Source: Escherichia coli O127:H6 str. E2348/69 (GTDB taxonomy: Bacteria; Pseudomonadota; Gammaproteobacteria; Enterobacterales; Enterobacteriaceae). From it: a stretch of DNA of 64,000 nucleotides. This document shows positions 18,321 through 23,332 of the stretch, in pieces (within the stretch, counting starts at the first letter, position 1; every line of letters begins with the position of its first letter). The DNA lies in NCBI RefSeq assembly GCF_000026545.1, contig NC_011601.1, one strand, 5' to 3'. Below the pieces are notes generated by a model. It saw only the letters and a program-made list of their open reading frames with translations. It was not told where the DNA came from and did not search any database. Made by a program: the position numbers and the translations under genes.

Positions 18321-18616
18321 TTGTCTTTCTCCTGAGACTCAGCGGCCATTTTCAGATACTGTTCAGGACAGTGCGCCATGACGCGCTGAAACAATGCCAG
18401 TGCCAGGTTGCGCTGCCCTTCGTTGAATGCAGTTAAGTGCGAATCACCAGCGAAGCATGGTGAGAACACCTTTCCCCTCTCCAGCATCGACCAGATAACG
18501 CGGCGGCCTTGCTCGCTACCCATAACGAACTTGATGTCGTCGATATCACGCTGAGCCAGAAGTTGCTGTTTGGCGTCAAGCTCTGCTTTGCGTCCTTCGT
18601 CGTCGATATCCATCAT
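18317..18616 (-). CDS. Hypothetical protein (99 aa)
   Basis: ORF overlapping neighbours by 4 nt on both sides. Confidence 0.4.
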   Translation of the reverse strand: MMDIDDEGRKAELDAKQQLLAQRDIDDIKFVMGSEQGRRVIWSMLERGKVFSPCFAGDSHLTAFNEGQRNLALALFQRVMAHCPEQYLKMAAESQEKDK

Positions 18617-20283
18617 TGCTGCGGTGCTCCTGCTGCATTAGCGATAGCAGTTAATGCGCTCGGGTCGCTGGTCTGCGTTTCGCTGAGAGTCTTGGCCCCC
18701 TGCGCTGCCGCCTGACCCATAGCCATTGCCTGTGCCGCCTGAGCCTGTTTAGCTCGCTCTTCACGAATACCCTGTACCTGCTCCTGCGGAACGATGACGG
18801 TTGGCGATACGCCTGACATTTCAGAGAACGCGTCGATAGCCTGATCCACATCAAGCTTGTCGAGCGCTTCAGGTTTGAACTGCGCCAGTTGCCCGATAAA
18901 TCCAACTGTCTGCGACAGGCTGGTGAGGCCGATAGATTTCTGAGCCTGAGCCATCACAGAGATGTACTCGATACGCAGCGGCATACCCTGAAGAACGTCA
19001 GGAGGTTCGGGCAACATGTTCTTGCGGGCCATGATTGAGAACACGCGATCGATAAGCGGGTTAAGCGCTTCGTCATTCAGGCGCTCAAGCACCGGGCCAA
19101 GCATCAGCAGTTTCTCTTCCTTCATCTCGATCACCGCTTCCACCGGCATAGATCGGGTGTTGATTTTTTGCAGCATCATGAAGAGGTCAACGAAGTAGGC
19201 GCTGTTGATGGTCTGCCTAGTGTCCTGAATGTCAGCCAGCAGGTCGGCGGTATTCGGGTTTACCAGGTATGCAGGTTTGAAACCATCCTGACCGGTCAAC
19301 ACGTCGAGATATGTCACATCGCCAGGCAACAGGGAAACACGCTGATTCTTGAGCGATGTTGGGGCAACCATCGGCGGGTTAGTGGCTTTATCGATCAGCT
19401 GAGCTTTGCGCTTCTGCTCAACCTGAAGTGCTTTAACCTGACCGAGTGCCAGCATACCAGGGCAAGATGAGGCGTAAACGTCTTCGCCATTCACTTCCCA
19501 GCGCGGCGCCAGAATAGGGAATTCATCAAATCCGGATTCACGCAGCAGCTTGTCGGAGTCGCCGCCAGACTCGAAATAGACAGAGCGGTAAGGCTTGTTC
19601 TTGCTGTCCATCTTCCCGCTGTCGCGGTTGACGTTAGGTGTGATGCAGTGGTTAACCTTCACCCACGTTTCATACGTGCCGTTTTCCCACATGCCTTTTA
19701 CGGATGTGCTGACGTTATCCAGACCGAATTCCTGCACCATCTGGCGCACGGTCATGGAGAACTGGCGAATGCAGGTGTCTACGCTACCGCGCGGACTGTT
19801 AGCCAGGTAGTAACTGCCAATAGGGAAAGGCATTGTGCGGATCACGTCCTGGTCATCTTCCAGAACAGCCATAGCGCCGGTGCCGAAAGTACCCAGACTT
19901 GCGTACATAACAGGCAGTGACTGATACAAATTCGATTTGTTGAACACTTCGTTCATGCGGCGCTGCACGACTTCCAGCCAGATTTTCACCGGGCCATAGT
20001 CCATCATGTCAGGGTCAGGCGTTGCCAGTTTGAACCACGGTCGTGCCGGACTGGTGATGCCTGACATCATGCCGCTGGACAGAATTCGCTGAGCCATTGA
20101 GCCAGTGGGATCAACAATCTTGGTGTTACGGCGATCATCACGGTTTACATCAGATGTCAGAAAGCGGGAGCCACGCGGATTGATGAAGTCACTAAGATCA
20201 CGCCAATGCGATTCGAACGATGTGCGCTCATTCTTCAGCTGTGCGAGCTGCTTCAGCAGGCGCTCTTTTTCGGTTTCCGCCAT
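18613..20283 (-). CDS. Portal protein (556 aa)
   Basis: Size and position upstream of scaffold/capsid; acidic C-terminal tail. Confidence 0.65.
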   Translation of the reverse strand: MAETEKERLLKQLAQLKNERTSFESHWRDLSDFINPRGSRFLTSDVNRDDRRNTKIVDPTGSMAQRILSSGMMSGITSPARPWFKLATPDPDMMDYGPVKIWLEVVQRRMNEVFNKSNLYQSLPVMYASLGTFGTGAMAVLEDDQDVIRTMPFPIGSYYLANSPRGSVDTCIRQFSMTVRQMVQEFGLDNVSTSVKGMWENGTYETWVKVNHCITPNVNRDSGKMDSKNKPYRSVYFESGGDSDKLLRESGFDEFPILAPRWEVNGEDVYASSCPGMLALGQVKALQVEQKRKAQLIDKATNPPMVAPTSLKNQRVSLLPGDVTYLDVLTGQDGFKPAYLVNPNTADLLADIQDTRQTINSAYFVDLFMMLQKINTRSMPVEAVIEMKEEKLLMLGPVLERLNDEALNPLIDRVFSIMARKNMLPEPPDVLQGMPLRIEYISVMAQAQKSIGLTSLSQTVGFIGQLAQFKPEALDKLDVDQAIDAFSEMSGVSPTVIVPQEQVQGIREERAKQAQAAQAMAMGQAAAQGAKTLSETQTSDPSALTAIANAAGAPQQ

Positions 20284-20297
20284 CTCTGCCTACTCCG

Positions 20298-20504
20298 TTA
20301 CTGACCAAGCAGCGTTTTACCGCTGGTGTTTGCGGTTGAAGTGTCACCCTGCGCACCAGTCAGCAGAGTAGAGCTGCGCCCTGCTGCTGCGCGGCGGCGG
20401 CGCTCTTCGTCGTCACGAGAACTGACAACTGCTGCATCCTGCTCCTGTGGCGCAGCCTGTACTTCTGGCGCTGCTGGCACTGATGGCTTGCTGCCGATAC
20501 ACAT
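20298..20504 (-). CDS. Small hypothetical protein (68 aa)
   Basis: ORF immediately upstream of portal gene; Ala/Arg-rich low complexity. Confidence 0.25.
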   Translation of the reverse strand: MCIGSKPSVPAAPEVQAAPQEQDAAVVSSRDDEERRRRAAAGRSSTLLTGAQGDTSTANTSGKTLLGQ

Positions 20505-20593
20505 AGCAATAGCTCCGTACGCAATTAAATTATTACCAATTTAACCACATATGATTTATTTAGCGTAGGATATTGACACTTATAACATCAGAT

Positions 20594-20610
20594 ATTACCT
20601 TTTAGGTAAT
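20594..20610. promoter_or_regulatory. Operator-like palindrome ATTACC-N5-GGTAAT
   Basis: ATTACCttttaGGTAAT, upstream of portal operon. Confidence 0.45.
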
Positions 20611-21056
20611 TGGTTCGTGTGTTGAATTGATGAATTGCGGAGGTGGTTATGTAACCGCTTGTGCAGTAGCCCGGAGTACCGCAGCAATAAATTGGGCTTA
20701 AAAGTAAAGGCGGTGGATAAGCGGAGCATCATCTCCGCACATAACTAAAAGCGCGCTTCAGTGAATGACCTTTGAGCCTGGTCGTTAAATCCAAACGGTG
20801 GAGTGCGCTTTCAGGTGTGTAGCAGTACGGCATATGGCACATGTGCCGCAGCGGTCCGGATGGGTTCCCTTGATGCTACTTCCCCAGCCGGGTAGCCGGA
20901 ATGTGCAAGCCAGTGTTAGGTAAGCACGGACAGACGATTCACCATCGTGGCGATACGGTGTGACACCTCGGAAGAGACGAGGATGCAACGATGATAGCAT
21001 TGGGGTGACCGGTTAATCCCATGACGATAACCGATACAGGCGCAGTGCTCTCTTCG

Positions 21057-21169
21057 TTGTGGTTAGCTCAGATAGGTTAGAGCTCCATCCATGCTTGCCA
21101 TTGCTGCATGGGCGGGGAATGGGTTCCGAAAGGATCGCCGCGCAGGTTCGAATCCTGCACCACAACCCA
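21057..21169 (+). tRNA. tRNA-like element, non-canonical (possible pseudo-tRNA or structured RNA)
   Basis: 7-nt acceptor strands TTGTGGT/ACCACAA pair; canonical D-arm TAGCTCAGATAGGTTAGAGC; T-arm GCAGG-TTCGAAT-CCTGC; discriminator plus encoded CCA; but ~58 nt lie between D- and T-arms (normal ~22), including a 7-bp stem with an 11-nt loop. Confidence 0.3.
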
Positions 21170-21375
21170 ATCACGCCTTAGGACCGTGATGAAGCGCCCA
21201 TAAGAACAATGCTGTGTAGCCTTTGGCGGTGGCAGTTTCCCTTGATGCTGACCACCGTCACTTTTACACCAGAACGCCATTGCGATGACGTTGCGCTGTA
21301 AACCCGTAAGCCATGGAAGGCACCCTTGCTTCCATTTCGCCCGGTTCGTCCGGGCATTTTTTTAAGGTGATTAGA

Positions 21376-21807
21376 ATGAGTAAAGACCTGTTCGACATGA
21401 AGCGCCTTCCGGTTGACCGGGTTGCTGCGAGAGTTGTTGGTAAGGGCGTTGATTGGACGCCAAATAAAGTTATTCAAACTGGTGACAGCGATCTTCCGTT
21501 GCCAGTATTTCCTGCATATAACATTAAAAACCCGCAACAACGACGCGAAGTGCAAGCAATGATCGGAAGAAAGAGCGGGAGATTGACAATAATTGGTCTC
21601 GCGGTCACACAGGGAGCAAAAAATAAAGGGGCTCGCTATGTTGCTCGTTGTGTTTGCGGGATTTATACGTATCGCAGAGCAAAAAATTTCAAGAATAATT
21701 CTGATGATTTTGACGGATGCGAGCGCTGCAGAGAACTGTTGTTTCTCAAAAGGGAAGAAGTTAAACGCAGAACGGGAAAATGGGTTGACTGGAAAGAGCT
21801 GATGTAA
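21376..21807 (+). CDS. Hypothetical Cys-containing protein (143 aa), opposite-strand moron between terminase and portal genes
   Basis: ATG at 21376 preceded by AAGGTGA; CVCG...CERC zinc-ribbon-like motif; own terminator; opposite strand to all surrounding late genes. Confidence 0.45.
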   Translation: MSKDLFDMKRLPVDRVAARVVGKGVDWTPNKVIQTGDSDLPLPVFPAYNIKNPQQRREVQAMIGRKSGRLTIIGLAVTQGAKNKGARYVARCVCGIYTYRRAKNFKNNSDDFDGCERCRELLFLKREEVKRRTGKWVDWKELM

Positions 21808-21827: not shown

Positions 21828-21852
21828 AGCCCGCCGATGCGCGGGCTTTTTC
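21828..21852 (+). terminator. Rho-independent terminator
   Basis: AGCCCGC-cgat-GCGGGCT hairpin followed by TTTTT. Confidence 0.5.
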
Positions 21853-23332
21853 ATGCATAGGGATCGTACTCTGTGAGAGCCTTGCCCTGTTGGCTCTGTT
21901 GCTGCCCATAGTTAAACTGTTTTTTGGTGACCGGCGCGGCATATGTCAGCACGTAGGCGTCGGCATCGTTCGGGGATCTGCCAAGCAACTCTTTGACTTC
22001 TTCCTTGTCCTGCAAAATCTTCCTGCTGTCCTTCAGCCTGACCTTGTACTCCGGCGCACTCAGCTCATCGGCAAGGTTCTGGCTATCCAGTTGCGCCCCA
22101 AGCTTCAGTGCGTCGCGGGCTGATTTGTACATCTCCCCGCGCTTATTGCCCATCTCGGGATCCGCGGTACCGCTTCCGAACTGAATCAGCGTCCAGTTTC
22201 GCCCCCAGTTATCGCCAACTGATTTAAGCCCGGTCCCGTACCCGTAATCGATAAACACAGCATCGGCCTGGTACTGGTCCTCGAAGTCGGCAATTATTTT
22301 GGCAAACAATACGTCGTCAGTGGTGCGTTGCCACTCCCCGAGTTTCTTACAGTGCAGTCCCTGCCGAAGATAGATAACCGCCGGGTCTTTACCCTGGTGA
22401 GACGGGTCGACGCCAAGAACTACAGCAGCGTGCTGAACCTGTGCCGGAGTAATAACCCTGCCAACAGCTGGCTGAGTCAGGCCAGACGGAATGAACTGGT
22501 TTTCAGACGCATCAGGGAAGATCCCGCGCACGCGAACCTTCACGAAGTCGCTGTCTTCGCCGTAGTCGTCCACCCACTTTTGCAGTTGCTGCTTGTTGGT
22601 GCCTTCCACGGTGCGGCTGTCAATCTGCGCGCACTTCCAGCGGTGTTTGTACTTGCGGAAACATTCACGGAAACGCCCGGTGTTACGCGTCGGGTTACCG
22701 AACGCCACCCAGATGATTTCGGTGTCTTCGTCCGTCAGCGCCCCTTCAGCTACCTCCCACACCAGATCGGCAATGTTGGATGCTTCGTCGAATACCACGA
22801 TGATGCGCTTGCGCTCGTTGTGCAGCCCTGCGAACGCCTCGGTGTTGTGTTCAGACCATGGGATTGCGTCAGCGCGCCAGCGTTTATCGTGACCGGGATC
22901 GTTGCTGTACATCGCTGTGGCGGTGCAGGTGAACCACTCTTTCGTAATAGCCAGGTTCGACCATTTGATGATTTCCGGCCATGTCTTGGTACGCAACTGA
23001 TTGTCGGTGTTGGCGGTCACCACCACCTTGCAGTCCTCGCAGGTGGACATGCCCCAGTTAATCAGCATCGAGATGAAAGCAGATTTGCCGATACCATGGC
23101 CGGATGCGCGCGCCAGCATCAAAGGCTGGTGACGCGTCGCTGGGTTCTGGAGGTGATCGCGTATCTCGCGGAAGGCGTCAGCCTGCCACTTTCTGGGACC
23201 TGTGGCGTGCGCCAGCTCTGTGCCATCCTCTCCCCACGGAAACGCGTACAGCGCATAGCCCAGCGGGTCATACGTGAACGAGGCGATATCCTCAACGAGC
23301 TGCTCTTCCGGCGACATGGCTTCGGCTGTCAT
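21851..23332 (-). CDS. terL: Terminase large subunit
   Basis: Walker A-like ARASGHGIGKS near N-terminus; size 493 aa; directly downstream of and overlapping the small-subunit gene. Confidence 0.8.
   Translation of the reverse strand: MTAEAMSPEEQLVEDIASFTYDPLGYALYAFPWGEDGTELAHATGPRKWQADAFREIRDHLQNPATRHQPLMLARASGHGIGKSAFISMLINWGMSTCEDCKVVVTANTDNQLRTKTWPEIIKWSNLAITKEWFTCTATAMYSNDPGHDKRWRADAIPWSEHNTEAFAGLHNERKRIIVVFDEASNIADLVWEVAEGALTDEDTEIIWVAFGNPTRNTGRFRECFRKYKHRWKCAQIDSRTVEGTNKQQLQKWVDDYGEDSDFVKVRVRGIFPDASENQFIPSGLTQPAVGRVITPAQVQHAAVVLGVDPSHQGKDPAVIYLRQGLHCKKLGEWQRTTDDVLFAKIIADFEDQYQADAVFIDYGYGTGLKSVGDNWGRNWTLIQFGSGTADPEMGNKRGEMYKSARDALKLGAQLDSQNLADELSAPEYKVRLKDSRKILQDKEEVKELLGRSPNDADAYVLTYAAPVTKKQFNYGQQQSQQGKALTEYDPYA

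Follow-up and report, generated by a model that had tools for sequence, protein, structure and literature searches.

A conserved tRNA-like element, probably a non-decoding cargo of a modular non-coding unit in epsilon15-type phages

The 64,000-nt stretch of DNA analyzed here (the window) belongs to the chromosome of the enteropathogenic Escherichia coli O127:H6 strain E2348/69, which it matches at 100% identity, and carries, within a prophage of the epsilon15/phiV10 type (Uetakevirus), a tRNA-like element at positions 21056-21169 on the (+) strand. The NCBI Prokaryotic Genome Annotation Pipeline (PGAP), as seen in RefSeq, labels exactly 21057-21169 (+) as 'pseudogenic_tRNA tRNA-Gly'. Comparison of its alleles indicates that the element is being kept in shape by evolution and is not decaying. 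Its surroundings are a conserved, modular non-coding transcription unit with a hypervariable slot, a point overlooked by an earlier reading made from the letters of the window and a list of their open reading frames (ORFs) (the sequence-only reading). With moderate confidence, we favor the proposal that the element is a selected, non-decoding tRNA-like RNA, excised in the manner of a tRNA, and that temperate enterobacterial phages carry it as one of the alleles filling a hypervariable 'cargo' slot of a conserved non-coding transcript.

The element combines the frame of a tRNA with an abnormal center and has a five-helix fold, which RNAfold returns for the single sequence at -43.4 kcal/mol. The acceptor stem (TTGTGGT/ACCACAA, 21057-21063 with 21159-21165) is lengthened to 8 bp by G21056:C21166 (the invariant G-1:C73) and is followed directly by an encoded CCA (21167-21169). 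U8 and A9 are succeeded by a D arm (21066-21083), with the stem GCTC/GAGC (21066-21069 with 21080-21083) and a GG in its loop. A 5-nt linker (21084-21088) leads from the D stem to stem A (CCATGC/GCATGG, 21089-21094 with 21106-21111), which has 6 bp, or 7 bp counting a flanking U.G, and is capped by the 11-nt loop TTGCCATTGCT (21095-21105). It is followed by the 30-nt hairpin B (21112-21141; GAAA loop at 21128-21131) in the position of a variable arm, and by the T arm GCAGG-TTCGAAT-CCTGC (21142-21158), all on the (+) strand. Thus, the 7-bp acceptor, the D arm with GG, the T arm with GTTCRANYC, the discriminator and the CCA of a canonical tRNA are all present, and the sequence-only reading was right to regard the acceptor stem, D arm, T arm and CCA as canonical: their pairs are either invariant or covarying. 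In contrast, in place of a 5-bp anticodon stem with a 7-nt loop and a single anticodon there is a 6-bp stem with an 11-nt loop. Likewise, the topology is that of a class II tRNA, with five helices and a variable-arm hairpin (hairpin B) between the anticodon and T arms, but the dimensions are not: class II tRNAs have a single nucleotide, 26, between the D and anticodon stems, a variable arm of about 13-21 nt and a 7-nt anticodon loop, as against the 5-nt variable linker, 30-nt arm and 11-nt loop found here. The same reading had counted about 36 nt of excess in the center and described a stem with an 11-nt loop; both observations stand, except that the excess does not lie wholly in that stem-loop, as 30 nt form hairpin B.

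This allele is rare: it occurs in 10 of the 5426 complete E. coli genomes, in every one of which it is labeled a pseudogenic tRNA-Gly, and on 9 IMG/VR and 15 metagenome contigs, with no match in the GenBank phage records or in a one-genome-per-species scan. Further, more diverged alleles were obtained by scanning with the 5' half of the element. We aligned 11 distinct alleles, without ambiguity, on the five-helix model and compared them with 500 shuffles and with controls in which the pairing partners were slid. Across these alleles 95.7% of the cells are paired and seven pairs show changes on both sides: in the anticodon-like stem four of the six, in hairpin B the pair that closes the GNRA loop and one outer pair, and in the T stem one pair that occurs as three pair types. 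None of the 500 shuffles reached any of the five measures, and sliding the partners lowers the pairing to 33-45%. The loop is nearly invariant, reading UUGCC(A/G)(U/A)UGCU in all 11 alleles; the linker before stem A varies freely (CCAUC, UCAUC, CUUUU, UUGUU). Moreover, the element retains 92-97% identity between loci whose flanks are only 30-85% identical, while one locus (L018) presents the reverse case of a near-identical upstream flank with a diverged yet compensated element. These two situations together indicate that the element moves as a cassette.

The default and transfer-messenger RNA (tmRNA; -m) modes of ARAGORN report neither a tRNA nor a tmRNA at the element. In intron mode the program yields a forced 'tRNA-Cys(GCA)', with a long variable arm and a non-canonically sited intron of 14 nt, and it calls other alleles Ala, Ile or Met; with the Gly of PGAP this makes five identities across programs and alleles, and there is no consistent anticodon among the alleles. 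The Rfam tRNA model (RF00005, gathering threshold 29 bits) rejects the element, giving no match there even at E<=10 in a 1.3-kb search. However, a covariance model built from the 11 alleles, which finds a single copy in the window at 138.9 bits, matches true tRNAs over their full length at 25-40 bits, pointing to the homology of the frame with tRNAs. Hence, despite this frame, the failure of the anticodon arm and of the model score indicates that the element is not a tRNA. The covariation, the conservation above that of the flanks and the want of a consistent anticodon together exclude neutral decay and render a decoding role very unlikely. Other known families do not account for it either: Rfam 15, run on the whole window at gathering scores and on the element region at E<=10, returned nothing beyond the distant small RNA (sRNA) sroE and noise. 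There is no Rfam match to tmRNA; none in the window to YrlA/bacterial Y RNA (RF02553), the neighbors being the terminase, the portal and a small ORF with no Ro/Rsr gene nearby; and none at E<=10 to the C4 model for the P1 C4/P4 CI immunity RNAs. In a test for antisense targets, the complement of the loop showed no significant excess in the window (4 matches, 2.1 expected).

At the same position most relatives have an authentic tRNA-Arg, and others have unrelated RNAs within frames resembling that of a tRNA. Using an invariant 25-mer near gp3 as an unbiased anchor, we collected 120 related loci, of which 105 were long enough for the slot to be typed. For all cargos the slot is closed by GTTGTGG...CCACAAC, and all share the leader AGTGCTCT..C and a trailer hairpin AATCACG..CGTGAT. 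The commonest occupant, at 73 loci, is a canonical tRNA-Arg(UCU) (TCT in the DNA), which scores 73 bits against the Rfam tRNA model and is annotated in typing phage 9. A further 14 loci bear a 'type-4' cargo composed of GTTGTGGTGAAT and GCGCAGGCTGATGCGC, a stretch of 50-160 nt unrelated between phages, and then GCCGGAGATCAGCACCGGC, CACCACAAC and CCA. In five a foreign center of 80 nt is set between true D and T arms, and in another five the fold is like Methylophilales-1, matched over its full length but weakly (28 bits, with a gathering score of 79.9). The tRNA-like element of the E2348/69 type is found at three loci, once in tandem with another cargo; three more have other types of cargo and two are empty. 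In epsilon15, which lies outside this set, the slot is empty and the rest of the unit is kept. Rfam searches of eleven related loci gave only the tRNA-Arg and the weak Methylophilales-1 match for another cargo.

The tRNA-Arg(UCU) of the phiV10/SPN1S-type Uetakeviruses sits in the same slot, between a leader AGTGCTCT..CGTT and a trailer AATCACG..GGACCGTGAT, and has a T arm identical to that of the E2348/69 element and a similar D arm. Unlike the element, which fails the tRNA model, it is a canonical tRNA of 77 nt. Relative to it the acceptor of the element is re-registered, with two bases deleted on each side and two leader bases recruited so that a full stem is kept, and the element has in addition the 6-bp/11-nt 'anticodon' arm and the 30-nt extra hairpin. 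The predicted folds of the cargos have a hairpin that immediately follows the closing stem and another stacked on the 3' strand of that stem, i.e. at positions resembling those of the D and T arms, and, as read by eye, these stems differ between cargos by paired changes (GCGCA/UGCGC versus ACGUA/UACGU; GCCGG/CCGGC versus GCUGG/CCAGC). One cargo, of loci L017 (5882-5928) and L043, is by its sequence a mimic of helix 11 of 16S rRNA set in a tRNA-like frame: its center matches the Rfam small-subunit rRNA model with an E-value of 1.8e-7 and is identical at 33 of 40 positions to nt 243-282 (helix 11) of E. coli 16S rRNA (z 11-15), with the differences preserving the pairing. The cargo of L061 resembles the same 16S site more weakly (z 3.1).

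The unit that holds the slot is on the (+) strand and extends over 20606-21363, with a predicted transcript of about 0.76 kb. The interval 20505-21375 has no annotated or conserved ORF, in keeping with the earlier statement that some 0.8 kb here lack a credible ORF, and homologs of the unit differ by insertions or deletions of whole modules rather than by codons. The approximately 760-nt RNA folds with a minimum free energy of -290.9 kcal/mol (z -4.46 versus shuffles), and several helices outside the element covary among relatives. Upstream is a candidate -35 box TTGACA (20573-20578, (+)), invariant in the alignment, for which the -10 would be TACCTT after a 17-nt spacer; an operator-like palindrome TTACCTTTTAGGTAA (20595-20609, unstranded) overlaps this putative -10. 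The pattern TTACC-N5-GGTAA has 16 matches in the window at no more than one mismatch, 10 of them perfect, as against 1.07 expected, and no shuffle reaches 16. The perfect copies are at 3349, 20595, 23943, 26371, 26433, 28740, 28757, 29481, 29543 and 29619; two triplets of sites flank an ORF (28826-29419) resembling a helix-turn-helix repressor, and the homologous site in epsilon15 is annotated 'repressor'. To judge by their placement, these palindromes are probably the operator set of the prophage, and from the enrichment, the sites around the repressor-like ORF and the epsilon15 annotation we infer that the unit is under repressor control and would be expressed on infection or induction.

Within the unit, a conserved structured module (20822-21003, (+)) has covarying stems and comprises the palindrome GGCACATGTGCC (20836-20847), GGTAGCCGGAATGTGCAAG and a hairpin CCTCG-GAAGAGA-CGAGG; the palindromes that the sequence-only reading placed at 20721 and 20836 are both there. 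Next comes a second variable site, slot 1 (20994-21051, (+)), with the closing stem ATAGCATT/AGTGCTCT around an insert at 21002-21043. In relatives it is closed by (G/A)AGAGCAYT...AGTGCTCT(C/T) and holds 22 distinct inserts; this stem covaries as well (GAGAGCA/TGCTCTC versus AAGAGCA/TGCTCTT). Directly 3' of the CCA of the element is the trailer hairpin ATCACG-CCTTAGGAC-CGTGAT (21170-21190, (+)), which is kept after every cargo type. A hairpin GGCGGTGG...CCACCGTC with a U-run and a covarying stem follows (21211-21260, (+)); its 21225-21259 portion scores 16.1 bits, and its relatives 18-25.7 bits, against Rfam DicF (RF00039), below the gathering score of 48, so that this is a resemblance and not family membership. 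The unit ends in an intrinsic terminator called by the scan (GCCCGG-TTCGT-CCGGGC plus T7, 21339-21363, (+)), whose stem covaries in relatives (GG/CC versus AC/GT), and a conserved ribosome-binding site comes after it. The whole tRNA module is bracketed by direct repeats of TTCCCTTGATGCT (20865-20877 and 21237-21249, (+)), the second copy lying in the DicF-like hairpin, and epsilon15 lacks exactly the stretch between the copies, as recombination between them would give.

The non-coding locus is present in 526 of the 5426 complete E. coli genomes (about 10%), and the roughly 180-nt module corresponding to window positions 20822-21003 is found, unannotated, in 79 GenBank phage records from three unrelated groups. 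These are the Uetakeviruses; lambdoid phages (mEp460, cdtI, and Stx2a and Stx2c phages), in which it is beside a cI-like gene in the early region; and P1, P7, D6 and SJ46, in which it is between trnI and ban in the C1-controlled ban operon. Copies of the module lie at 2418-2605 of the P1 locus (L160) and 1905-2110 of the mEp460 locus (L161), and in mEp460 the locus is complete, slot 1 and a type-4 cargo included. The terminal hairpin of the module keeps the loop GAAGAG(A/U), while its stem changes between CCUCG/CGAGG, GCCGG/CCGGC and CCUGG/CCAGG. In context, the leader of the P1 ban operon is the nearest described relative: it too is a repressor-controlled early transcript that mixes tRNA genes with a long unannotated structured RNA, proceeding from the C1-controlled Oban/Pban through a 'dicF-like region', trnA-trnT and trnI to ban, and about 90-190 nt of it are homologous to window positions 20822-21003. 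However, it has only canonical tRNAs and a different order of modules, with the protein genes plp, upl and tciABC interspersed. A link to the dicF region of the Qin prophage is no more than a lead, as only short shared motifs were seen by eye, with no BLAST match. In full-text searches of the literature we found neither the element nor its slot nor the shared module described; the Pas sRNAs of E2348/69, which lambdoid prophages carry, are unrelated.

The favored proposal can be cast as a sequence of events. The unit would be transcribed from a promoter overlapping the phage-repressor operator, with the RNA made on infection or induction. The tRNA-Arg of the same slot is functional only once cut free, so its leader and trailer, which the element shares, should subject the element to RNase P and 3'-end processing as well; the host enzymes that free the tRNA-Arg from its precursor (RNase P at the 5' end, 3' trimming and CCA repair) would also release an L-shaped RNA of about 113 nt. 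The tRNA frame would then serve processing and stability, with the altered anticodon and variable arms, i.e. the conserved loop and the GNRA hairpin, as the working surface. Rather than take part in translation, such an RNA might engage, as a mimic or decoy, a factor of the host or of a competing element that binds tRNAs. A role as a mimic or decoy of a host RNA is favored among functions by the slot also holding a true tRNA and an rRNA-helix mimic, and by its varying in the manner of counter-defense loci; taken on its own, and argued by analogy, a decoy role is nevertheless a tentative and rather doubtful suggestion.

Several observations weigh against this proposal. The single-sequence fold is no more than modestly better than its shuffles (z -2.0; 5 of 200 shuffles), and the global minimum-energy fold of the 760-nt RNA does not keep the entire cloverleaf. 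The covariation comes from few independent events, and that in the T stem may be due to cassettes having recombined and not to point compensation; three of the 11 alleles lack an encoded CCA or have it out of register. The rarity of the allele among E. coli genomes and phage records likewise counts against it. A consensus promoter scan called no promoter at the start of the unit, that proposed above coming from the perfect -35 and its conservation only. Further, the center of the element resembles neither rRNA-operon sequence (z 0.6) nor any Rfam family; the decoy role is drawn by analogy, and the expression, processing and binding of the element are predictions from its sequence.

The chief rival proposal makes the element a domain of a larger RNA, acting whole or in cis, from which it is never released, for instance as a leader or attenuator for the accessory ORF downstream, as a source of a DicF-like sRNA, or as an antisense to the late terminase-to-portal transcript. 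The fold of the whole unit, better than that of shuffles, and its covarying helices outside the element agree with this, as do the conserved ribosome-binding site after the terminator, the sub-threshold DicF-like hairpin and the antisense orientation of the unit to the late operon, where an RNase III site is annotated in epsilon15. Yet the slot of most relatives holds a canonical tRNA-Arg, and since this has to be excised the flanks ought to be competent for processing; moreover, the cargo is replaced in one piece whatever its flanks, and epsilon15 retains the rest of the unit without any cargo. On balance we regard this rival as unlikely. It is much less probable still that the element is a decaying tRNA pseudogene, i.e. 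a former tRNA hit by insertions and now drifting without function, as the RefSeq label implies. PGAP applies 'pseudogenic_tRNA' in all 10 E. coli genomes, the element fails the Rfam tRNA model and default ARAGORN, and the allele is rare; against this stand the seven compensatory pairs, which include the 'abnormal' stem, with a level of pairing that no shuffle equals, the nearly invariant loop, and the far greater conservation of the element than of its flanks across diverged phages and metagenomes. The 'degenerate or insertion-bearing tRNA' offered by the sequence-only reading survives as a statement of ancestry, to which the tRNA-Arg slot, T arm and flanks attest, but the element is not degenerating and its insert is no intron. 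The alternative 'tRNA mimic' of the same reading fits better, for the frame and the abnormal center are conserved with compensation while no consistent anticodon is.

A working tRNA that decodes, having either an intron or an enlarged anticodon loop (e.g. reading GGC via UUGCCA, or decoding quadruplets or frameshifts), would explain why the frame, elbow nucleotides and CCA are canonical, and the start of the loop, U-U-G-C-C-A, resembles the anticodon loop of tRNA-Gly(GCC). We hold this to be very improbable: an 11-nt loop on a 6-bp stem, a 5-nt linker and a 30-nt variable arm lie outside the known decoding tRNAs, and the programs disagree over five identities. Glycine identity elements (U73, G1:C72 and C2:G71) are absent, the element having C73, U1:A72 and U2:A71. 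Bacterial tRNA introns are self-splicing group I introns of at least 200 nt with a P1-P9 core, whereas the excess amounts to 14-36 nt (36 nt in all), too short for an intron, and has no Rfam match to Intron_gpI; E. coli is not known to have a tRNA splicing endonuclease. Least probable of all, to the point of being negligible, is a feature acting at the level of DNA, such as an att remnant left behind by secondary integration into a tRNA gene, which the sequence-only reading had also entertained, or a recombination site. Phages often integrate into tRNA genes, and the TTCCCTTGATGCT repeats flanking the module are matched by the deletion in epsilon15; however, these repeats account for loss of the module by recombination and not for how the element arose. 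The tRNA frame has both its halves, and they pair; the selection is on RNA pairing, the same slot is kept in free phage genomes, and the element is in the middle of the structural region, about 15 kb from the integrase-like ORF and the prophage end beside guaA. An att remnant would be a partial tRNA, usually the 3' half, beside an integrase at the end of a prophage, and the locus gives it no support.

A selected, non-decoding tRNA-like RNA has several precedents. YrlA (a Y RNA-like RNA), the tRNA-like domain of tmRNA, the tRNA-like structures of plant viruses and the RNase P-processed P1 C4 and P4 CI RNAs all rely on a tRNA frame, made of acceptor and T arm and in some cases a D arm, to be processed, stabilized or recognized, the remainder being non-decoding. 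The E2348/69 element differs from them in matching neither YrlA, tmRNA nor C4, in having complete D and T arms, and in residing in an exchangeable cassette slot. Another parallel is artificial: Ponchon and Dardel reportedly engineered a 'tRNA scaffold' for the expression of recombinant RNA, in which a foreign structured RNA replaces the anticodon arm and the cell processes and stabilizes the product. By analogy, cargos of type 4 and of the L046 type resemble a natural form of it, though the phage slot is an evolving one, some of its frames swap the D and T loops for other conserved loops, and its processing is predicted. GOLLD and ROOL are large prophage RNAs that are often beside tRNAs or contain them (10.1101/2024.12.08.627333; PMC5737381). 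The unit described here is like GOLLD and ROOL in being a large, ornate, unannotated prophage non-coding RNA associated with tRNA genes, but it has no Rfam match, is in phages of Enterobacteriaceae and is far more modular, with cassette-like replacement of parts.

These comparisons allow a broader, more speculative proposal, to which we attach distinctly less confidence than to the favored reading of the element itself: the locus might be a natural 'tRNA scaffold' display locus, early and repressor-controlled, common to the epsilon15/phiV10-type and lambdoid mEp460/Stx2-type phages and in part to P1. In it, a conserved stem resembling an acceptor, together with hairpins like those of D and T arms, would frame a cargo that is rapidly exchanged. 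The cargos excised from it by host tRNA enzymes (the tRNA-Arg, the long tRNA-like RNA, the helix 11 mimic and at least a dozen other folds) would be mimics of host RNAs or decoys that, as part of an arms race, titrate defense nucleases, toxins or RNA-binding proteins. Phage tRNAs rescue translation from tRNA-cleaving defenses; a preserved tRNA-shaped RNA unable to decode would point to a second strategy, namely mimicry. Taken as a whole, the locus has a substantial chance of being a phage RNA system of a new kind. The element is the entry to an apparently undescribed modular non-coding locus in three unrelated phage groups, with a cassette slot whose contents include an rRNA-helix mimic; were the cargos excised and active, phages would possess a natural equivalent of the engineered tRNA scaffold, and their counter-defense or host-takeover RNAs would gain a new class. 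Annotation pipelines hide such elements under 'pseudogenic tRNA' labels or overlaid hypothetical ORFs. 'Hypothetical protein' ORFs are indeed annotated across the locus in several phage genomes, e.g. 1866-2419 of L161 (mEp460) and in L007 (PAT1), and are probably mis-annotations.

With respect to the wider setting, the position of the element between terminase and portal inside a prophage, as first read from the sequence, is borne out by the gene coordinates: the portal is at 18613-20283 (-), followed by a small gp3-like gene at 20298-20504 (-), and the large terminase subunit at 21851-23332 (-), with the small terminase beyond it, also on the (-) strand. Behind the terminator of the non-coding unit is a variable accessory ORF of 143 aa (21376-21807, (+)), assigned to phrog_18493 with a weak HNH-like match and without a match in Pfam, NCBIfam or PADLOC; relatives have other ORFs at this position. 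The prophage end has an ORF of the size of an integrase (35086-36339), one of the size of guaA (36532-38109) and one of the size of xseA, these names being inferred from size and position. The sole Rfam family above threshold in the window is sroE, at 60024-60115 (-) with 116.6 bits.

A few minor observations concern the contents of the slots. Some slot 1 inserts bear T-arm-like GGTTCGATTCC hairpins. The match of a 19-mer in an unrelated phage (L129, L134, L136) is ascribed to chance. The Methylophilales-1-like cargo (GTGGTGAATAAGGCATTAA...), present in L007, L018, L044, L088 and L108, also resembles the spacer between 5S and aspU of E. coli rrnH (35 of 46 identical, z 4.5). In type-4 cargos (L028, L039, L050; L161 2165-2290) the D-loop analog GGCUGA is complementary to the T-loop analog ..UCAGCA; the two loops could pair within a single molecule to form the elbow, or make a kissing contact from one molecule to another, and, both loops being conserved, they show no covariation.

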